The notes under the pieces were generated by a model. It was not told the DNA's origin, did not search any database, and saw nothing but the letters and a program-made list of their open reading frames with translations. The position numbers and the translations under genes were made by a program. Below, in pieces: positions 8,421 through 29,263 of a DNA stretch of 64,000 nucleotides (positions are counted from its first letter, which is position 1; the number at the start of each line of letters is the position of its first letter). Origin of the DNA: a virus. Taxonomy: Duplodnaviria > Caudoviricetes. The DNA is taken from the IMG/VR virus record IMGVR_UViG_2909979649_000004, one strand, 5' to 3'.

Positions 8421-9737
8421 TTAAAATACTTCGAAGGTAATAGTGGCACTTTCAATATCTTCATATTCCAGTGGTAGCCCTTTTTTAACTTGTTCAGTCG
8501 TTAAACGCTTTATTCCCATTGAAAATAGTTCTTCATCACCATCAATCGTATCGTCCGGGCTAACTTTTTTCACATATTCACTTTGATGGTTTTGCATATA
8601 CAGCAAGTCATCAATGATATCACCGGTTAATGTACTAATACTGACTTCACCGTTACTGTTATTGCTGGTCAACCAAAATTCATCATCACTATTTAGTTCA
8701 ACACTCTTTTGGTCACCATGATTGTTTCCTCTCATGGTAAATAATGCAGTATGCGCTTTATCAACTGACTGGATTAAAATATTTCCTTTCTGCTGTTGAT
8801 TTCTAATCGTGACTAATAAACGAAAAGAACGGTCACGATAGCCTAACGGCAACCATAACGTACCTTTGCCGGAAATTTGTGGACGATATATCCGTTTAGA
8901 TGCAATGATGGCTGGGTAAAATTGGCTGCTTTCAATTTTCCCTAACAACACATCGTCATAGCTTGAATCAAAAGATACATGTTGTTCATCCAAACCATGA
9001 GTATTATACGTGCTATCCTCTAAGTCTCTTAAATTGAAGCCTGTAGAAGGTGACCATCGTAAGTGATAGGTTTTGTCTTGCTCATAGGAGAATGTACGTT
9101 CACCTTCTGAATAACTTGCCGTATTGAAGTTTTTCCACCCGCGCCAGCGTATAATTTGATTGGGCTTTATCGTTAATAATTGGCTACTCAGATTGACTTT
9201 AAGCCGGTTATCGTCATTCAGTATTTCTGCAGCAATTGGCATTTGTGAAAAGCTATTGGCTAACAAGTTTTCAACATATGAGCGAGAAGCCAATACAATT
9301 GCAGGATCAATTTTAAGTTCTACATTCGCTGTATTACTTAGCTCAAAAATAACCTTTATATATAGGCTACTACCACTACCTTGAGCCAAAGTGGGTTTAT
9401 ACGTTTTCGGGTATTTACCGATGGCAATTAAATTATCATCTGTATCATACAGTCCAAATTCAGTAATATAAAAGTTACCATCTTCTTCAGGGATGACCGT
9501 TTCAATCACCAGCCAATGATCGTTATCCGGGTCTTGGAAAATACTATTAATAGGCCCCTGCCATTTTTCCCTAACCAGTGCAGTATCTGTTTCTTTGGGG
9601 TTGGTTTCTTTACCCCCATCTTCACCACCATCACCCACTTTTAAGGTGGTTAGTTTAACTGTTTTACCCAATGCCTGGGCGTTAATAATCCTGGCCTGCC
9701 CAAGCTTAGTGAGCAAGCTAAAGTATTTTTGATTCAA
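8421..9737 (-). CDS. Tail fibre protein (P2 gpH-like N-terminus)
   Basis: LT.LG..VGDG..IPE.DGNFYI.EFGLYD..YKP..GSG..IDPAIVLASR.YV N-terminal domain. Confidence 0.88.
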   Translation of the reverse strand: MNQKYFSLLTKLGQARIINAQALGKTVKLTTLKVGDGGEDGGKETNPKETDTALVREKWQGPINSIFQDPDNDHWLVIETVIPEEDGNFYITEFGLYDTDDNLIAIGKYPKTYKPTLAQGSGSSLYIKVIFELSNTANVELKIDPAIVLASRSYVENLLANSFSQMPIAAEILNDDNRLKVNLSSQLLTIKPNQIIRWRGWKNFNTASYSEGERTFSYEQDKTYHLRWSPSTGFNLRDLEDSTYNTHGLDEQHVSFDSSYDDVLLGKIESSQFYPAIIASKRIYRPQISGKGTLWLPLGYRDRSFRLLVTIRNQQQKGNILIQSVDKAHTALFTMRGNNHGDQKSVELNSDDEFWLTSNNSNGEVSISTLTGDIIDDLLYMQNHQSEYVKKVSPDDTIDGDEELFSMGIKRLTTEQVKKGLPLEYEDIESATITFEVF

Positions 9738-19077: not shown

Positions 19078-19277
19078 TAAAAAATCACCCGAAAAGCGTG
19101 GCGGGGTGAACAGCCATTTAATTCCGCTTCCAAAGACTTAATATAATGCTCCAACTGTTGGGGGGCATGAAAGGTCACGCTATTCCCTTCGCTGTCACGC
19201 ACAGTGGCCCGGAGTGAACCCGTTTGGAGTTTGTGTAAAGCGGCTTTGGCTTCTTCTAAACGTTGCTGGTGGTTCAT
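19077..19277 (-). CDS. Head-tail joining protein (lambda gpW)
   Basis: LEEAKAALHKLQTG..V..L..YI..LE; between terL and portal. Confidence 0.88.
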   Translation of the reverse strand: MNHQQRLEEAKAALHKLQTGSLRATVRDSEGNSVTFHAPQQLEHYIKSLEAELNGCSPRHAFRVIF

Positions 19278-20747
19278 CCTAATAAATCCGCTAAGTCTGC
19301 AAGTTGTAAGGCAGGTGTCGTTGTGGTTGGTGATTGGTTAGGAGAAATGATTAAGCTGTTATCATCCCAGTGAGCCGCCCAGCCCGGTGGCTGTTGCCAA
19401 TTAAGCTTGTGGGCGTTGAGCTTTAATAAACAGCCCATGTTGTACACCAATAAATCCCAGGCTTCGTTAGGGGCTTTATCCATCACTTTGCACCAACGGC
19501 CTTTCGCATCCCGGGCTTCATTGGTGAGTTCTTCAAAAAAGGCTTTAGGAAGCCAGTCTGGAAAGTGAATATAGTCGGCACCGGGTTCATCCCGTTCTAA
19601 TGCATTACTCACCGAATCTTTAATTAAATTGGTATTGAGTAAATACAGGGGAATGTCCCCTTGAATAAATGCTTTACGTTGTTGCCGGTTGCGATTATCC
19701 GGGAAGGTTGCTTGAATGCGTGGTGCACCCTCACGGCCAGTGCCTTTAATTAAAATCAAGCGATGGGTTAATTGCTGGCTTTTTAAATACCGGTAAAACT
19801 CATAGGCTTTATCGGTCACCCCATCTTCGCCCCCACTGTCACAGGCGACTAATTTAATTTGCATTAAACGACCGGAATTATCCGCTAAGGGATAGGTTTT
19901 ATTGATGACTTGATCAACCAGGCAATGCCAGTCTTCTTTAAAAGCGGCGGGGTTTAATGGGTAAGGTTTACCTTTATGGTCTAGCCGCTGGGACTGGTCA
20001 ATACTAAATCGATCAATCACCCAACCTTCAAATTCTTTTCCCCAGCCAATAACCTGCACGACAAAACGCTTTTGTTTACCGCCCTGCACATCAATGGCGG
20101 CGGTTAAAAAGCGGACGCCTTCAGGCACGACGTGTTCACCTAAGTTTTCCTGGCGATCCATTAAGGCTTCAGCGGTTCGAAATTCGGTGTTGTGTCGATA
20201 ACGATAGGGTTTACCTAAATCTAAGTTGGTCCAACTTTTTAATTTTTCTTGGCTACCAGTATGCTCATATTCTTGTTCAGCCAATAAATACTGGTACACC
20301 AAGTTCTGCCAAGTTTGAAAACCGGCGGCGGGACCTTCTAACCAAAAAGTGGCCATTTTAGAAGAACGGCTTTCGCCGTGTTTATGGCCTGTTTTATCCA
20401 GCCATTCGCCTTCTTTTAGCCAACGACCGGTTTGATTCAGTGTAAATTTTTGCTCAGGGCGTATTACCCCTTGGCAATGAGGGCAGCGCATGACTACCGA
20501 CTCTGAGGCTTTCACTAAGTCAGCTTGCTCCACCCAATGCAGGTGATCAAAGATCGGTTGAAACCATTCTAAGCACACGTCATTAGGACATTGCCAATAA
20601 TAACGACGCCGGTCGCCCATGTTATACAGGCTTAAAATACCTTGGGTCGGTGGGGATTCATGAGTGGTGGTGGGTTGCCATTTTGGGTCCAGCACTTCCC
20701 AACCGGGTGAGGATTCCACCAGGGTTTTACCTGCACTCATAAAAGTT

Positions 20748-21778
20748 CCTAATTATCATCATACCTAAGCTATATTTAGTAGCTTACCTGGTAGTGGAGG
20801 TGTTCTCAGTGCTACAAATGCTAGCCTAGGAATAAATTCTACTAAGCTAAATCTTCGATTAAATCGATACTGAAATTCAGCAAGATAACGTTGTGCATAT
20901 TTAGCGCGAATAGCATGATAAGTACTACGTAAAGCACTTTTTAAGTTTCCAAGGATGGTGTTAACCCAATAAAATTCAGGTTCCTCTACTGATGCACGAC
21001 CACCACCGCATACAATTTTATCATGAAGACAACCTGCTTCTATGACACCATTAAAACAGGCCAGTCCATCGGAGATTACGGTACTGCCCTTGGCCAAATT
21101 CTGCCTACTCCAAGCCGTTATCTCTTCTTTATTAAACCCTTTTAAAATGCTCAGTTTAATTCGTGTCGGTTGACCTTGTTTTGTTGTTTCTACGGCTGCT
21201 ACAAAAGGTATTTTCCCATCTGCTCCCCTACCTCTTTTGCAACCTGTACGCTCACCACCAAGATAGGCATCATCAATTTCAATAAAACCCGACAATTGCT
21301 TGGTGCCTTCTCTTTCTTGCATCACTTTCATGAGCTTATGTTTCATTCTCCAGGCAGCTTGATAGGAAATACCTAAATGGCGATGTAATTCTATGGCTGA
21401 TATACCTTTTTTGTCTTGGGAGATCAAATACATCCCTTGGAACCAAGTCTTTAATGGTAATTTGGTTGATTCAAAGATAGTACCTGCAGTTACAGATGTT
21501 TGCTGGTGACATTTATAGCACTGCTGAAGCTTTCTAGTAGTGAGTTGACAGCATTTGTCGTATCCACAATTGGGGCACTGAAAACCTTCTGGCCATCGCA
21601 ATTTGTATAAGGTATTAAAGCATTGTTCTTCTGTACCATATTGTTTGAGAAACTCGTTTAAACTCAGGCCTTTTTGAAATTGAACTTTGTTGATAGCCAT
21701 TATTTATACCTTCTCAATTAAGTTTCCATGCTGTTCAAATATACAGCAGTTAATGGCTTAGGTATAGTGATAATTAGG
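20748..21778 (-). mobile_element. IS1595-family insertion sequence (1031 bp)
   Basis: 23-bp IRs cctaattatcatcatacctaagc / cctaattatcactatacctaagc; 8-bp TSD TAAAAGTT at 20740-20747 and 21779-21786. Confidence 0.95.
20765..21700 (-). CDS. IS1595-family DDE transposase
   Basis: RWPEGFQCPNC..C..C zinc ribbon, GTIFE.TKLPL, EIDDAYLGG, ISDG, YLAEFQYRFNRR. Confidence 0.95.
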   Translation of the reverse strand: MAINKVQFQKGLSLNEFLKQYGTEEQCFNTLYKLRWPEGFQCPNCGYDKCCQLTTRKLQQCYKCHQQTSVTAGTIFESTKLPLKTWFQGMYLISQDKKGISAIELHRHLGISYQAAWRMKHKLMKVMQEREGTKQLSGFIEIDDAYLGGERTGCKRGRGADGKIPFVAAVETTKQGQPTRIKLSILKGFNKEEITAWSRQNLAKGSTVISDGLACFNGVIEAGCLHDKIVCGGGRASVEEPEFYWVNTILGNLKSALRSTYHAIRAKYAQRYLAEFQYRFNRRFSLVEFIPRLAFVALRTPPLPGKLLNIA

Positions 21779-22365
21779 TAAAAGTTTGAGTCCGCTTTTT
21801 CGCTAAGGTATAAGGGTCACCTTCTTTATCCACATTCGCAGGCAAGCGATCATAGTCCGTTAAGGCCACATAACGATAATCCGAACTGGATAATACATTA
21901 ATCGTTGGCCAGCCAATTTTTAAATAATTACCCGGTTTAAAAATAATATCGTGGACATTATTGTCATGCCGCCGGCTGGAGCATTGATTGCGTAAATTCG
22001 GACTAGCATAAATAGTCCGGCGAATGCGCTTTTTAGAATACTCTTGCGCTTTTTCTTTGGCGAGCTGCACAATCAACATGTCAGCGGGCTCAATCATAAT
22101 CACATAGGCCATCCAGCCTTCAATCAGCGCATTGGTTTTTCCACAACGGGCCGGGCCAACAAAGACCACCGATTCATAATCCCGTTGATTGAGGCAATTT
22201 AATACTTCCACTAAATAGGGGATAGCATCCGTTGTCCAAGGTTGGCTACTACCAGCAGCCCCCGGTATCCATAAGTTTTCTTGGATGGCTTGGGTTACGG
22301 TTAGCCGTCGTGGAGGCTTAAATAAACACGCCACTTCTTTGCGAATTTGCTCGGCAGAAGCAAAG

Positions 22366-22819
22366 TTATTTAATTCGGTCATACAGGGATTGGCGTATAC
22401 CATCAGTGATCACCTGTACCTGACTCAATGCCTCAGCAGATAATTGGCAATTACGTTCTAGTTGATCGGGTAAGGTTTCCAGTTGTTGATTAACAGTAGA
22501 CACCACTTGATGTAATTCGCGGCGAACATCTTCCACCGGGACGAGTTTTTTTTTCACGTTCGAGTAAGGTCAGTTTTTCATTTTCGGAGCGAAACCACTC
22601 ATTACGCTCACGGGGTGTCATTTGTTCGATCGGTTTTAGGCTATTACCATTGGCCGCATTGAATAACACAGGACCCACGACATCAGAGGGATACACATCA
22701 TAACCCCGACGTTTACCCACGGGTTGCACGTTGGCCATATCCAAACGTCTCGATACCGTTTTACGGCACATGCCAAAATACGCGGCCATTTCGCTAATTG
22801 ACCAGTTCTGAGGTCCCAC
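22366..22819 (-). pseudogene. Terminase small subunit (Nu1/DUF1441-like), frameshifted at A9
   Basis: HTH N-terminus and ERNEWFRSENE in one frame; LVPVEDV..LETLPDQLER in another; deleting one A of the run at 22546-22554 joins them. Confidence 0.8.
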
Positions 22820-23859: not shown

Positions 23860-24126
23860 TTATGAACTCTCTTTTTATTGCTTTAGGAAATGTCCAGCAG
23901 GTTGGACGATGGAAAAAGTAATTATGATTAGACTAAATAGAAATTAAGTTATTTTAAATATCTATTTCACAGGAATTTTGATAGTAAGTTAATGATTTTT
24001 AATGAAATTTGTTTTTTTAAATTTAATTGAAATACTTCAAATTTGTGACTACTATAACATTCTCAAATGAGCAAATATGGTCATTTCAACCCCTTCCTTA
24101 AGTATCCTACCAGTAAGGAAATCGTT

Positions 24127-24417
24127 ATGAAAACAAGCATTTTATGCGCTTTGTTTATGGCTATATTTATCAATCCTTTAACAATATCTGCAGACACTCT
24201 GAGTAAAACTAAGTCAGTTGATCTATTTGCCGGTGACTCTATAGAGACCAATGAAAAAAATAGTAATATATTTTTTGAGTTCAATGGTTCCAGCATTAAA
24301 TCCAAAACAAAGTCTAATTTATATCGTGAGCACAACATCAATAATCGACTTGAAAATCAATTTGATCGAGAAGAAGAGTCAAACCTTAATGTGACATTCA
24401 CCATCCTATTTAACTAG
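24127..24417 (+). CDS. Small exported moron protein
   Basis: SD AAGGA, signal peptide MKTSILCALF..ISA; beta-strand-like C-terminus. Confidence 0.55.
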   Translation: MKTSILCALFMAIFINPLTISADTLSKTKSVDLFAGDSIETNEKNSNIFFEFNGSSIKSKTKSNLYREHNINNRLENQFDREEESNLNVTFTILFN

Positions 24418-24660
24418 GTAATCATGTTCCTGCTTATCATGAGAGTCAGGTAAACCATTCATCTTCTGATAAAACAAAACCGTCTCCCGCTTATCCTGCC
24501 GGTGCTTATATACCCAATTAACAACAACGGTAATCGTAGTCAGAATAATACCAATTATCACACCCCAGTCTTTGAGTGTTAGGCCTGCAATCACAGTGGC
24601 AGCACTGGCGACATAAGGGGCATTGGATATAATTTTTTCAGTTACCATGGGGCTAACCAT
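24406..24660 (-). CDS. Holin (HP1-like)
   Basis: LTL.DWG.IIGI..VNW.YK.R. Confidence 0.8.
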   Translation of the reverse strand: MVSPMVTEKIISNAPYVASAATVIAGLTLKDWGVIIGIILTTITVVVNWVYKHRQDKRETVLFYQKMNGLPDSHDKQEHDYLVK

Positions 24661-25067
24661 TATCGTTGTCGAGCAACACCTTTTAATTTTTCGGCAGTTC
24701 GTTGAGCACCAAGACCTAGTAAGGTAAAGACAAGTGTCATTAATTCACTGGTTTCGATTGTCGGTAGCATGGCTACCACATCAGGGCGATTGGCTAGCGA
24801 CAAACCAATCACTATAAAATCTCGCAATATCCACGCATAAGCCAACAACCCGACACACAACCAACCTAACCCAGGCCGCCAACCTGAAACCCATAATGAT
24901 GGATGCTTGGCTTCTTCTAAATTGGTTAATGCTTGGAGTAAATGCGGTTGGTTGAGAGTTTCTTGGAGTTTTTGCTTAGCGGCTAAGCGTTCTTCGTCTG
25001 AAGTGAATAAGCTATCAAGGCCAGAAACTATAGTGTTGGCAATATTTTCAATTGATATCAATTTCAT
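24660..25067 (-). CDS. 3TM holin-like protein (GTA holin family)
   Basis: LD.LFTSDEER..SGWRP..GW.C..LLGLG..RT.EK. Confidence 0.85.
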   Translation of the reverse strand: MKLISIENIANTIVSGLDSLFTSDEERLAAKQKLQETLNQPHLLQALTNLEEAKHPSLWVSGWRPGLGWLCVGLLAYAWILRDFIVIGLSLANRPDVVAMLPTIETSELMTLVFTLLGLGAQRTAEKLKGVARQR

Positions 25068-25073
25068 GGGAAT

Positions 25074-25103
25074 AAAAAAGCCAAGACAGGTTAGCCTTGG
25101 CTT
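25074..25103 (-). terminator. Intrinsic terminator after S74 genes
   Basis: AAGCCAAG..CTTGGCTT followed by T run on minus strand. Confidence 0.7.
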
Positions 25104-25134
25104 ATTTTGGAGTGGAATCAGATTGTAATCGGTT

Positions 25135-25596
25135 TTAAAGGCCTAAATCTTCGCGTAGCTTTTTGTTCTCTTGTTTCAACTCTTTCACTGCTTCGATTAA
25201 AACACCAACTAATCCAGCATAGTTAACTTGTTTAAGTGTCACTTCAGCGCCATTCTTATCTGTGACTTTGACATTATGAACTAGCTCAGGAAATGCTTTT
25301 TCTACATCCTGAGCAATTACACCAATATCTTTTCCTTGGGGAAGGTGTTCGATATCAGTCTCTTCAGGACTTTTCCACTCAAATTTTACACCTTTGAGTT
25401 GGCTAACCTTATCTAGGGCTTGATCAATTTTAGCTTGATTCTTTTTCAACGTTGAATCACTAAAACGCATGAAATTAGGCTTTGATAAGCACTCACTATA
25501 AGCATTTCCTGATAAATGTTTACACATCTCATGTGAGCCTGCTTGAGATGCAGTAGCAAGTGAAGCAAAAAAAATGGTAGTAAATAGTTTTTTCAA
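25135..25596 (-). CDS. Secreted peptide precursor with C-terminal S74 (intramolecular chaperone/autocleavage) domain
   Basis: TTG start at 25596; 19-aa signal (..ASQA), 26-aa two-Cys segment, then SDSTLK..DIGVIAQDVE..PELV..VNY.GL..LIEAVKEL. Confidence 0.8.
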   Translation of the reverse strand: MKKLFTTIFFASLATASQAGSHEMCKHLSGNAYSECLSKPNFMRFSDSTLKKNQAKIDQALDKVSQLKGVKFEWKSPEETDIEHLPQGKDIGVIAQDVEKAFPELVHNVKVTDKNGAEVTLKQVNYAGLVGVLIEAVKELKQENKKLREDLGL

Positions 25597-25660
25597 AGTA
25601 GTTCGCCCGTACTTTATTTGTATCAATTATTCTAACTTATAAAATAGCTAATTAGATCAC

Positions 25661-26053
25661 TTATAATCCAAATTGATCTCTCAAGACTTGATTCTCCTTC
25701 TTAAGCTCCTTGACAGCCTCAATTAAAACTCCAACAAGCCCAGCATAGTTAACCTGTTTGAAAGTTTTTTCTGTACCACTTTCATCTGTAACTTTGGAAT
25801 TATGAACCAGCTCAGGAAATACTTTTTCTACATCCTGGGCAATTACACCAATGTCCTTTTGGCTATTTTTTTTCCACTCAAAATTTACACCATTTAGTTG
25901 TGATACTTTATCTAGTGAGTTTTCGACAGGAGTAATATTTTGTTTAAGGTTGCGATCACTCCATACTCCCCGACCACATTCCCAACCTTGACAATATGCA
26001 TGAGAAAAAGTTGAAACAGAAGTTAGCACAATAGTAGCAATTATTTTTTTCAT
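25661..26053 (-). CDS. Secreted peptide precursor with C-terminal S74 domain (paralogue)
   Basis: 19-aa signal (..SHA), YCQGWECGRGVW, then SDRNLKQNI..GVIAQDVEKVFPELV..VNYAGL. Confidence 0.85.
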   Translation of the reverse strand: MKKIIATIVLTSVSTFSHAYCQGWECGRGVWSDRNLKQNITPVENSLDKVSQLNGVNFEWKKNSQKDIGVIAQDVEKVFPELVHNSKVTDESGTEKTFKQVNYAGLVGVLIEAVKELKKENQVLRDQFGL

Positions 26054-26234
26054 AATAGTTCATCCGTACATTATTTATACCAAGTGTTACGGCGATGTAT
26101 CATAGCAAAGAAAAATAAATGTATCGTAAACTATTGTAATAATTTGTATCAAAACATTTCTTCTTAACACCTATAAAAGTCCATTTCATTATTTTTATTT
26201 GGACTTGCATCCAAAGTCAGATCAATATAAGTAA

Positions 26235-26627
26235 TTAATGTGCTTTATTTATTTTCCACCACTCTCCCACGTCAAAATTAGGACAAGTCTTACCCGCGTC
26301 TAAATCACAATGCCCAACCACCTCAGCATTAGGGTATTTAATGTGCCAGTCGATAATCACTTTCTCTAAGCTATCAAACTGAGCATCGGTAAACTGGTCT
26401 CTACCAATTAAACAAACACCTAAGCTATGGCTATTATGACCTTTAACATGTGCCCCGACCCAGTATTCAGGCCGACCATTTTCGATAGTGCCATCACGTT
26501 TAATCACTTTATGGTAACCAATACCTGACCAGCCTCGTTCAATGTGCCAGTGGTGAATATCATCTGCTGATATATCTCTATCATTTGGCGTATCAGAACA
26601 ATGGACAATGAGTTTAGTAATTATCAT
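26235..26627 (-). CDS. Endolysin, N-acetylmuramoyl-L-alanine amidase (T7 lysozyme-like)
   Basis: IVHCS..HWH..GW..IGYH..GAHVKGHN..GH..KTCP.FD. Confidence 0.95.
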   Translation of the reverse strand: MIITKLIVHCSDTPNDRDISADDIHHWHIERGWSGIGYHKVIKRDGTIENGRPEYWVGAHVKGHNSHSLGVCLIGRDQFTDAQFDSLEKVIIDWHIKYPNAEVVGHCDLDAGKTCPNFDVGEWWKINKAH

Positions 26628-26730
26628 TTAGTTTATTTAAGTATATATTATGGTGTATTTGTGAAAGATGTAGATCATCATGTTATTACATAATACATCA
26701 CAATGAGTTAACTAATATTAGGGAGCTAAC

Positions 26731-27312
26731 GTGAACATACTATCAAAGGCTTGCTTGACATCGTTGTTAATACTGGCAAGTCTACATTCAACAAGTCAGG
26801 AAAGAATTCAGACTCCAAAAGTGTGGAAAATGACTTATAGTGTACTCGATTCAAAACAGGCAGCAGATTTCTGCATCAATATATTAGGTATGGATAAAAT
26901 ATCCATACCTGACCCTACTCTTGCTAAAGGTCGGTCATGGGTTCGTTTTCCTGATTCAGGATTAGAGCTTCATTTTGTCGATGCTAAAACCCGGTATGGA
27001 CATAATAAAACTAAGGAGTTTTATCAATATATAGATGCGTTAGATCAAGATATGACTGTTTTTACTACATTTATGGATAATCATGGCGCTATATTAGTTG
27101 AGGACTTAAACCCATATCTAACTAAGCTAACAAAAAACAATATACCATTTTTAGGACCAGTAAGAAGAGCCGATGGTGTTTACCAACTTTATATTGAAGT
27201 GCCTGGTCATATGTACCTAGAATTAGATTCTAAAAAAGTACCTAACAAAGAATTTCCTACCACAACTTGGGATAAGGTGCCTTTTTCTCCAGTGGAAAAA
27301 AGTAAGTCTTAG
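26731..27312 (+). CDS. Exported VOC/glyoxalase-like moron protein
   Basis: Signal peptide; SV.D..A.DF..ILG, ELHF, H.AILVEDL, QLYI..PG..LEL. Confidence 0.6.
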   Translation: MNILSKACLTSLLILASLHSTSQERIQTPKVWKMTYSVLDSKQAADFCINILGMDKISIPDPTLAKGRSWVRFPDSGLELHFVDAKTRYGHNKTKEFYQYIDALDQDMTVFTTFMDNHGAILVEDLNPYLTKLTKNNIPFLGPVRRADGVYQLYIEVPGHMYLELDSKKVPNKEFPTTTWDKVPFSPVEKSKS

Positions 27313-27346
27313 AACGAAAAAAGCCCTGTCTTCTGATAGGGCTTTT
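27313..27346. terminator. Bidirectional terminator
   Basis: AAAAAAGCCCTGTC-ttct-GATAGGGCTTTT. Confidence 0.8.
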
Positions 27347-27383
27347 CAACTAAATTTATAGTTAATATGACTCTACATCTGGC

Positions 27384-28019
27384 TTACTCTACCGTTTCAA
27401 AAGGTAGTTCGTATGAGTTTCCAAAAATCGCATGATTTACTCCATCTACAGAAAAATTAATTAAATCTATTGGCTCTGCTTCAATTCCAGGATCAAACTC
27501 GTACGGAGGGAGATAAGGTAAAAAGTACAAAAAATTACCAGCTTCTTTAGATGCTGCAGCCAGCTCTTCATAGCTTGTATATCCGTAAATGCTTTCTACT
27601 TTGAAATAGTCTGGGATTTTGATCTCACCACTAAATTCTTTTGCTGAGCAGTACTCTAAAGCTCTAAGCAGGCGAATGAATGGAAGGCCAAATCCTGCTT
27701 CTACATCGCCTTCAGTCAAGCCATCAATAGACACCTTATTATCTTTTAATACAGATAACTTAAATGACGTATAATTATCTGAGCTGCTCTTATAGATAGA
27801 GGTTTGCTTTATCAACAAGAGTTCACCATCATCACCTAAACACATCTTAGGTGTTTTAAGAGAGTAGAGGTTGTCTCCAGGTTGTATGTTATTTAAGTTA
27901 GGTAACATATTACTTCCAGTCAGCTCCCACTTTTCAGTTGGTGCATCTTTGGGAACTTTAAATTGTGCTATTGCAGACGTACTAAGAATCAGTAGAGAAA
28001 TAAGTAAATGCTTTAGCAT
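27384..28019 (-). CDS. Exported hypothetical moron protein
   Basis: Signal peptide ending AIA; 211 aa. Confidence 0.65.
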   Translation of the reverse strand: MLKHLLISLLILSTSAIAQFKVPKDAPTEKWELTGSNMLPNLNNIQPGDNLYSLKTPKMCLGDDGELLLIKQTSIYKSSSDNYTSFKLSVLKDNKVSIDGLTEGDVEAGFGLPFIRLLRALEYCSAKEFSGEIKIPDYFKVESIYGYTSYEELAAASKEAGNFLYFLPYLPPYEFDPGIEAEPIDLINFSVDGVNHAIFGNSYELPFETVE

Positions 28020-28086
28020 GATATAGATTTTCCTTTTAGTATCCAGAACGAAAAAGCCCCGACAATGCAGGGCCTCTTCAAGTAGA

Positions 28087-28422
28087 CTAGTTAATAATGG
28101 TGGTGTAGTGTATACCAGCTTGGTCGTAAAGCTCTTTAGCTACTGCATTATACCCAAAAAACTCAGTGATTTTTTCTAAGCTATCTTCTACATGTGCCCA
28201 CTCAGATACATGATGAAATGGTTTATATAATATGGCCTTTATATGCGCTACATATTTACCTTCAAGGCTTTTAAATAGCCTATATGTTTCTTCACTACAT
28301 TCACCGCCTTGTACAAGATGTCCTGACGCAAAGCCCATCATTTTACCTTTTACTTGTAAGTTAAGGTCATTAGATTGAATAAGAACAAAAGTGTTTTCAT
28401 CAGACACTAAGTCGTGTTGCAT
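28087..28422 (-). CDS. Hypothetical protein
   Basis: 111-aa ORF with SD, flanked by terminators. Confidence 0.65.
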   Translation of the reverse strand: MQHDLVSDENTFVLIQSNDLNLQVKGKMMGFASGHLVQGGECSEETYRLFKSLEGKYVAHIKAILYKPFHHVSEWAHVEDSLEKITEFFGYNAVAKELYDQAGIHYTTIIN

Positions 28423-28558
28423 GTAAGTAATACCTTTTTACTTTTCAAAAGACATAAAAAAAGCCTTAACGATGTAAGGCTTGGTGAGACTTCAATTGTG
28501 GTACTGCAGATTAGGCGTATTGCTTGTGCTTAAGGGAGCATAAAAGTTGTTAGCCTGA

Positions 28559-28591
28559 AACGAAAAAAGCCCCGTCATTTGACAGGGCTTT
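28559..28591 (-). terminator. First terminator downstream of Q (tR'-like)
   Basis: GCCCTGTC-aaat-GACGGGGC-T6 on minus strand; related hairpins at 28456-28482 and 28047-28073. Confidence 0.75.
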
Positions 28592-28669
28592 CTTAACTGA
28601 GCATTTTTACTTTTCTTTAGGCAATATCTTTAAGCCTGGGAAAAGTATATATCCAACATAGCACCCTGG

Positions 28670-29263
28670 TCAACAACTTTTTTCAAATAAATAGCAAAAA
28701 AGTTGATGATTCACTTTTTTATCCCAACTATGAAGTTCATCCAAGCATTCTAAATAACGGGCATGCCATGTTTGACACCAACTTTTATAAGTAATACAAC
28801 ATTTTTCGGCGAGTTCTGCTTTAGTAAGTGCTCTTTTTCCATTTGAACATCGACACTTACGTGTAAAGCTTTTATGTTGATATACACCAGTGCCATTGCA
28901 TGTCTGACAAGTGTTCTCAAAAATGACTTCGTTAATCATTTGTCTAGCAAACTGAAGAAAAAAGAACAGTGACTTTTTCTTATCAGTTGGCCACGGTTCA
29001 CGCCACTTTTCATTAATCCCCTTTGTGATAATGAACTGCTGAGTCAATTTATCGAGTTCGTGTATAACTGTCTTATCATTGTTGTACTTTACTAGTCCTA
29101 ATAAATACGCCTCACGTGGTAAGTCTCCCATTCCAAGTGCCGCCGCGACATCTTCAGGGGTTAACGTTGGCATTCCACCAGGTACACCTTCATATTTAAC
29201 CGACTTAGGTGTTAATAAGGTCATTGCACTCATCTTTATATACTCTTCGTCGTTTCGGGTCAT
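28670..29263 (-). CDS. Late antitermination protein Q (lambda-type)
   Basis: LTPEDVAAALGM, CQTCNGTG..CRC..G zinc finger, W..TW..Y; upstream of lysis genes. Confidence 0.85.
   Translation of the reverse strand: MTRNDEEYIKMSAMTLLTPKSVKYEGVPGGMPTLTPEDVAAALGMGDLPREAYLLGLVKYNNDKTVIHELDKLTQQFIITKGINEKWREPWPTDKKKSLFFFLQFARQMINEVIFENTCQTCNGTGVYQHKSFTRKCRCSNGKRALTKAELAEKCCITYKSWCQTWHARYLECLDELHSWDKKVNHQLFCYLFEKSC

Follow-up and report, generated by a model that had tools for sequence, protein, structure and literature searches.

Paired signal-peptide and S74-domain genes in a prophage lysis cassette as candidate self-processing precursors of small disulfide peptides

Results

Two tandem genes lie between the endolysin and the holins

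The window, by which we mean the whole 64-kb stretch analysed (64,000 nucleotides; IMG/VR record IMGVR_UViG_2909979649_000004, a virus of the Caudoviricetes, Duplodnaviria), corresponds to C1:1279604-1343603 of a 6.69-Mb genome, which we refer to as its own genome. On the minus strand of the window, two tandem small open reading frames (ORFs) lie between an endolysin gene and two holin genes, and we examine them here as candidate precursors of secreted peptides: each encodes a signal peptide, a short segment that we call the cargo, and an S74 domain. An earlier note on this DNA had described these tandem genes with their coordinates, signal peptides, two-Cys cargos, and intact S-D-x-x-L-K motifs, and all of this was correct when the ORFs were read again. 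The features of the cassette are as follows.

26235..26627, minus strand: endolysin (N-acetylmuramoyl-L-alanine amidase), upstream neighbour; Pfam Amidase_2, E 1.4e-15; phrog_822 amidase, E 1.8e-56
26123..26152, minus strand: promoter-like block, TTGATA, 18-nt spacer, TACGAT; consensus scan, 9/12 matches
26054..26080, minus strand: conserved 5′ leader immediately 5′ of the gene 1 start codon; alignment of paralogue upstream regions
25661..26053, minus strand: gene 1 (class A), 130 amino acids, ATG start; ORF and Pfam
25597..25622, minus strand: conserved 5′ leader before gene 2, with the motif found before gene 1
25135..25596, minus strand: gene 2 (class B), 153 amino acids, TTG start; ORF, Pfam, and paralogue alignment
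25070..25103, minus strand: intrinsic-terminator-like hairpin and T-run (25103-25078), closing the module
24660..25067, minus strand: holin of the three-transmembrane (3-TM) type, downstream neighbour; Pfam GTA_holin_3TM, E 1.1e-10; phrog_3427, E 1.1e-23
24406..24660, minus strand: second holin, HP1 family; Pfam Phage_holin_2_3, E 1e-14; phrog_20

In gene 1, a 19-residue signal peptide (26053-25997) ending in S-H-A is followed by a 12-residue cargo (25996-25961) that contains two Cys and ends in G-V-W, and the S74 domain starts at the Ser of S-D-R-N-L-K (25960-25958). Gene 2 is built in the same way, with a 19-residue signal peptide (25596-25540) ending in S-Q-A, a 26-residue cargo (25539-25462) with two Cys that ends in K-P-N-F-M-R-F, and an S74 domain that begins with S-D-S-T-L-K from 25461. 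The ORF list puts the start of gene 2 at 25626; the TTG at 25594-25596 aligns with all paralogues. Both signal peptides, judged by hydrophobicity and the −3/−1 rule only, have a K-K n-region, an h-region of about 13 residues, and an A-x-A-like cleavage site.

The leader, ..AAATAA.GTACGG..GAACTA.., is located just 5′ of both start codons and of the paralogue starts, and the promoter-like block, a weak sigma-70 match at 9/12, lies in an upstream region that aligns among five paralogues. The terminator hairpin likewise follows the copies at C1:1959874, 4407061, and 2653804. The shared upstream sequence and separate terminator of the earlier note were thus both recovered. Several family genes start with TTG or GTG after the ..GTACGG..GAACTA.. 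part of this leader and have no obvious Shine-Dalgarno sequence, and the leader may be a shared translational control element. An Rfam scan of 24300-26800 gave a single sub-threshold chance match and nothing else. An o-spanin-like ORF embedded in gene 1 (26063..25956) was rejected, as it has neither a lipobox nor an n-region.

The S74 domain and its catalytic dyad are intact

The S74/ICA domains of phage tailspikes and of MYRF trimerise, and a Ser-Lys dyad then cuts the chain just before the Ser (PMC3742443). In secreted Bdellovibrio fibres, the S74 SDxxxK dyad also autocleaves, and a Ser-to-Ala change stops processing (PMC10769870). In the Pfam Peptidase_S74 scan, which the earlier note had proposed, both genes matched from profile position 1 and covered positions 1-58, gene 1 with 73.5 bits (E 1.7e-20) and gene 2 with 61.7 bits (E 8e-17), where the curated cut-off is 22 bits. 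Every PHROG match of the two proteins falls at the very C-terminal end of a large fibre or baseplate protein. Across the 22 aligned family members, the S, D, L, and K of S-D-x-x-L-K never vary, and neither does the dyad at the start of the domain, Ser-x4-Lys, which in gene 1 is S32 and K37. The family profile matches the MyRF ICA domain, and the same domain (7dc3) was the top Foldseek match of an AlphaFold2 (AF2) monomer model (probability 1.0, E 0.012, TM-score 0.48), which we used for this top fold match only, given its moderate confidence (mean pLDDT 67).

Between the signal-peptide site and the Ser there are only 12 and 26 residues in the two proteins, and no fibre or beta-helix is present for the domain to chaperone. 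Elsewhere in the window no S74 domain was found, and the fibre-family matches of the window's tail fibre (9737..8421) are confined to its first 160 residues, which bears out the statement in the earlier note that the phage's own fibre carries no S74 domain.

The small signal-peptide form is a family of its own

About 35 homologues have a signal peptide, a short cargo that nearly always contains two Cys, and the invariant Ser/Lys dyad. The earlier note had named as the outcome that would speak against it homologues that were decayed fibre fragments with neither signal peptide nor Cys pair conserved, and these homologues show the opposite. The window's own genome contains 12 S74 matches, eight of which are intact small genes of the signal, cargo, and S74 design. 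Of the other four, the copy at C1:1213314 has lost its start (5′ end) and sits beside an insertion sequence (IS)-like ORF, the copy at C1:4395202 is a pseudogene with stops, and the remaining two are a contig-end fragment and a genuine fibre-like protein of 516 residues on contig 2.

Close relatives in a collection of 5.8 billion proteins amount to about 25 proteins of 130-160 amino acids, which come from Spartinivicinus, 'Endozoicomonas sp. SM1973', and Zooshikella, with a single metagenomic exception. In a genome survey at E ≤1e-10, the family was present in 5/5 genomes of the bacterial family (the window's own included) and in 0/196 other genomes of the order. When 1.84 billion representative proteins were searched with a profile built on the complete architecture, full-length matches came only from the family's own clusters, and the other 128,000 matches were ordinary S74 ends. 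Other S74 proteins with signal peptides exist, including the Bdellovibrio MAT fibres, but they contain at least 55 residues of fibre-like sequence. Among the matches listed in a tblastn search of isolated phage genomes, there were only S74 ends of large structural proteins, aligned from query residue 32, and the small secreted form was absent; blastn against the same genomes detected amidase similarity only. The sole close match in IMG/VR was a copy of the C1:2653 locus of the window's own genome. The database name of the family proteins is only 'tail fiber domain-containing protein', and a literature search found no description of precursors made of a signal peptide, ≤40 residues, and S74.

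Some relatives depart from the common design. A sister species (G135; L045:338-1830, L046:1063-1797) has relatives of 230-245 amino acids with a signal peptide and an S74 domain of the same clade, in which the middle part is a Cys-containing domain of about 110-130 residues without a Pfam match; the carrier therefore also takes domain-sized cargos. A metagenome contig (L047:180-1755) encodes a 130-amino acid relative in which the signal peptide precedes a 16-residue cargo that lacks Cys and ends in G-F-L-R-F before the Ser; directly after it comes a gene for a 391-amino acid ART/ADP-ribosyltransferase toxin-like protein. In one Zooshikella genome (G173:C36; L021/L026), a class C and class B pair is fused in one frame of 292 residues and the class B cargo is missing one Cys, so this is probably a decaying copy.

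Cargos form four classes that evolve apart from their carriers

The cargos fall into four classes, each of which is present in more than one species, and the classes are conserved across genera. Class A is Y-C-x4-C...W or C-x3-C...W-T-W; class B is (G/Y)-S-H-E-x-C-K-H-L-(S/T)-G-x2-Y-x2-C-x2-(K/R)-P-N-F-(M/L)-R-F; class C is C-x11-12-C...S-L-P-R-P-R-F; and class D is Y-A-Y-C-x4-C-x-V-R-F. With few exceptions, each member of these classes has exactly two Cys.

For six class B genes from two genera, we compared the proportions of nonsynonymous (pN) and synonymous (pS) differences. In the cargo, pN is 0.20 and pS is 0.78, with synonymous sites saturated, while pN is 0.28 in the first 29 S74 codons and 0.46 in the signal peptide. 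Between the window and Zooshikella sp. RANM57, identity is 85% for the class B cargo and 63% for the attached S74 domains. Because pN is low and cargo identity exceeds carrier identity, the class B cargo is, by these sequence measures, under purifying selection and is itself a selected product. Class C cargos, by comparison, are less conserved than their carriers. When the two parts were clustered separately, S74 carriers grouped by genus regardless of cargo and cargos grouped by class regardless of genus, and thus cargo and carrier evolve as separate modules. The idea of a variable-cargo system, which the earlier note had put forward, holds in these comparisons.

The N-terminus that class B peptides would have after the predicted signal-peptidase cut (25539-25531 in the window) is X-X-His in 5/8 sequences (G-S-H, Y-S-H, or Y-A-H), the pattern of the amino-terminal Cu/Ni-binding (ATCUN) motif, and His, Met, and Cys come after it.

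Residues before the predicted cut differ from those of other S74 proteins

In generic short S74 proteins (n=89), the residue at P2 is mostly Y, S, or T and that at P1 mostly S, T, or A; F occurs at P1 in 2/89 and R at P2 in 0/89. The family has R-F at P2-P1 in about 25 of its 39 distinct sequences, which include a few duplicates or fragments, and R-Y, R-L, x-W, or other residues in the rest. The R-F ending is a trait of the clade, because the Cys-free metagenomic relative described above also has it. It may determine cleavage or contribute to the function of the product.

The module is an optional unit of the cassette

Six copies in the window's own genome are located directly after an amidase homologue and before a 3-TM holin, and the order amidase, S74 gene, holin recurs in two further genomes of this genus as well as in one Zooshikella prophage. 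Sister prophages in the own genome that lack the module go directly from amidase to holin (e.g., C1:4400223 to 4399733), and in other cassettes without it the amidase is followed by a small one-TM protein and a different membrane protein of 130 residues. In all, the cassette at C1:4400223 to 4399733 and four others have the same amidase and holins and no module. In two Zooshikella species, a tandem class C and class B pair lies in the ordinary chromosome, with genes for an alkaline phosphatase and a solute-binding protein on either side. Downstream of some chromosomal copies a remnant of the start of the holin gene persists, which suggests that these copies descend from prophage cassettes. Tandem pairs always have class B second: A and B here, D and B in a sister species, and C and B in Zooshikella. 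Because the module is optional, travels with its leader and terminator, and survives in chromosomes, these sequence comparisons fit an accessory (moron) unit and not an essential lysis gene.

The window's prophage, which has genes for a sheath, a baseplate, and a tape measure protein, is a myovirus. Its large terminase gene, on the minus strand, is split into an N-terminal Walker-A part (21774..22403) and a main part (19274..20740; phrog_15, E 1.7e-150), with an IS1595-family transposase gene (20765..21700; Pfam E 2e-39) between the two, and for this reason the prophage is probably defective.

Discussion

Proposed processing of the two proteins

From the architecture and conservation described above, we think that each gene probably is a self-contained pro-peptide module that releases a short secreted disulfide peptide. 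In the mechanism that we propose, Sec would export the product and signal peptidase would cut after the A-x-A-type site (S-H-A or S-Q-A). In the periplasm, a disulfide would form in the cargo, the S74 domain would trimerise, and its Ser-Lys dyad would cut the bond just before the Ser, so that the S74 domain would act as a self-removing carrier and perhaps also as an assembly template. The predicted gene 1 peptide would have 12 residues, one disulfide, and a free C-terminal ..G-V-W, and the gene 2 peptide 26 residues, one disulfide, and a free C-terminal ..F-M-R-F; their computed monoisotopic masses in the oxidised form are 1440.57 Da and 2970.30 Da, respectively. The module occupies a slot that varies among temperate myoviruses, between their endolysin and holin genes, and the peptide may therefore accumulate in the periplasm and be freed when the prophage lyses the cell, as happens with the products of toxin genes in phage late operons. 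A conserved leader, possibly with a separate promoter, and a terminator would serve each module.

Several points weigh against this proposal. All known cases of S74 cleavage involve long trimeric beta-helical or fibre sequences ahead of the cut, compared with 12 residues here, and we identified in these proteins no equivalent of the oxyanion-stabilising Arg (PMC3742443). A stop codon alone would define the same C-terminus, which leaves the S74 carrier without an explanation; it may meet a length requirement for export, allow templated assembly, or mask the C-terminus. Unaided, peptides of 1.4-3 kDa would not cross the outer membrane, and the split terminase makes release by the prophage's own lytic cycle uncertain.

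Comparison with known systems

Phage morons and late-operon cargo genes include lambda bor and lom and the Shiga toxin genes, which lie upstream of the lysis genes. The module resembles them in being an optional unit with putative control elements of its own that varies between related prophages and encodes a signal-peptide product releasable by lysis; it differs in that its product would be a self-processing mini-peptide precursor. Phage endosialidases, tailspikes, and fibres (K1F, T5 pb1, S16 gp37) share with our proteins the domain family by hidden Markov model (HMM), the dyad, and the expected mechanism. In those phage proteins, however, S74 is the end of a chain of hundreds to thousands of residues that folds in the cytoplasm, and the released part is the fibre, whereas here the part upstream of S74 has 12-32 residues, lies behind a Sec signal, contains no fibre or beta-helix, and has R-F or x-W at P2-P1. 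[quoted passage not shown] Our proteins of 130-153 amino acids have none of this. The best profile and structure match, the MYRF ICA domain (PDB 7dc3; PMC3742443), is an S74 domain outside fibres in which trimerisation-dependent self-cleavage frees the N-terminal product; MYRF is a eukaryotic, membrane-bound, cytosolic-facing protein that releases a large trimeric transcription factor rather than a small peptide. The S74 domain and its chemistry are known, and what appears to be new is its proposed use as a self-removing carrier for tiny disulfide peptides that fall into classes, together with its carriage as a lysis-cassette moron.

Alternative readings

It is possible, though we consider it unlikely, that the module is a lysis accessory that substitutes for missing spanins or disrupts the outer membrane by means of a periplasmic S74 coiled-coil trimer or an aromatic-ended peptide. 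In favour of this, two genera together have at least eight prophage cassettes with the module between endolysin and holin, none of which showed a spanin-like gene, and the proteins share superficial features with i-spanins: their size, a hydrophobic segment at the N-terminus, a pair of Cys, and a coiled coil at the C-terminus. Against a lysis role, sister prophages with the same amidase and holins have no module, the Zooshikella tandem pair is far from lysis genes in an ordinary chromosome, and the module brings its own leader and terminator. In addition, the h-region, some 13 residues long and followed by an A-x-A site, does not make a membrane anchor, the proteins have no L-x-x-C lipobox, and the cargo classes are too diverse for a single mechanical role.

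We give a similarly low probability to the S74 trimer, cut or uncut, being the functional product, for example as a surface or periplasmic decoy for superinfection exclusion, with the N-terminal piece serving as a cap or pro-piece. The length and good conservation of the S74 part, in which many positions are invariant, are consistent with such a role. However, the class B cargo is more conserved than the carrier across genera and shows purifying selection, the same cargo classes occur on different carrier lineages, and the invariant catalytic dyad points to retained cutting.

The earlier note had offered as its alternative that the proteins are free chaperones for the fibres of other phages. 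S74 domains do chaperone fibre trimerisation in cis, but a trans-acting chaperone for the tail fibres of this or other phages is very improbable: the predicted Sec signals point to a periplasmic location of the proteins, whereas fibre assembly is cytoplasmic, the fibre of the window has no S74-related end, and the conserved two-Cys cargos would be left unexplained. Even less credible is that the genes are decayed 3′ remnants of tail-fibre genes with chance ORFs, as might be supposed from the C-terminal position of all the PHROG matches, since signal peptide, Cys pair, and dyad are all retained in about 35 intact members, pN is much lower than pS, synteny is kept in two Zooshikella species, and the true pseudogene of the family (C1:4395202) looks different, with stops.

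Resemblance to invertebrate neuropeptides

Returning to the proposed secreted peptides, their C-termini resemble those of certain invertebrate neuropeptides. In class A peptides, the C-terminal residue is a Trp and another Trp stands six residues away from it, and in myoinhibitory peptides (MIPs, or Wamide peptides) the Trp pair is spaced W-x6-W. Both Trp of the MIP/Wamide peptides are needed, and the MIP receptor is also activated by Drosophila sex peptide, which has a disulfide bridge and no amide (PMC7270403). The class B C-terminus, (K/R)-P-N-F-(M/L)-R-F, equals that of the nematode flp-1 peptide (K)PNFLRFa and is one residue away from PF4, KPNFIRFa, and from (K)PNFMRYa (PMC4058706). The class C ending, R-P-R-F (R-P-R-Y in one copy), fits the neuropeptide F (NPF) motif RxRF(Y)amide (PMC6389622). 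The six-frame translation of the genome, 13.4 million residues in all, contains PNF[MLI]RF at two places, one of them in gene 2. A match to 'GWEC..W|SD' at C1:4532419 was rejected because it is not a gene.

A doubtful extension of the proposal is that the released peptides are neuropeptide mimics that act on grazers or hosts and are freed at prophage lysis. If so, which we think improbable, their makers would be phage-carrying bacteria of marine sediment or associated with invertebrates, the S74 cut would expose the exact C-terminal recognition motif, and the effects might be, for example, relaxed nematode muscle or feeding or altered larval settlement. In favour of mimicry are the frequencies of R at P2 (0/89) and F at P1 (2/89) in generic S74 proteins, the rarity of PNF[MLI]RF, and the sex-peptide precedent. 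Against it, amidation is stated to be necessary for the function of FMRFamide-like peptides (FLPs) (PMC5344539), and the predicted peptides would have a free carboxylate. Class D and the divergent copies match no neuropeptide ending, the long list of known neuropeptide endings inflates chance matches, and R-F may be the cleavage-site requirement of the clade. The precursors also differ: those of FLP/RFamide peptides are repetitive and have a Gly amidation donor and a basic site, whereas here R-F is followed by S-D and there is one copy per precursor. Compared with FLPs, NPF, and MIPs, the predicted bacterial or phage peptides have an additional disulfide-looped N-terminal part; this is a resemblance only and not membership.

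Implications

If the proposed processing is correct, signal peptidase and S74 self-cleavage would together make a protease-free, two-cut route to disulfide peptides with exact ends, each from one small gene with a swappable cargo. The uses of S74/ICA domains would then extend beyond fibres and MYRF to peptide release, the lysis cassettes of Gram-negative prophages would hold a new class of phage-borne accessory genes, and the module would offer a compact carrier for producing small peptides in the periplasm. The cargo classes provide synthesisable candidates of 1.4-3.5 kDa for signalling, antimicrobial, and anti-grazer activity, and their likeness to FLP, NPF, and MIP peptides makes bacterial or phage neuropeptide mimicry directly testable.

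Other features of the lysis cassettes

No recognisable spanin pair was seen in the window at 24406-29263 or in sister prophages at C1:4490200-4491650, 4444700-4446150, and 1379300-1380750; besides the amidase, these cassettes encode small membrane proteins, two or three in each, and a Bro-N/KilAC antirepressor-like gene comes next. The cassette of the window is flanked by three more signal-peptide-like ORFs without a Pfam match, at 24067-24417 (plus strand), 26731-27312 (plus strand), and 27384-28019 (minus strand), which look like further accessory genes. The first of these, 24067-24417, is found again beside another lysis cassette.

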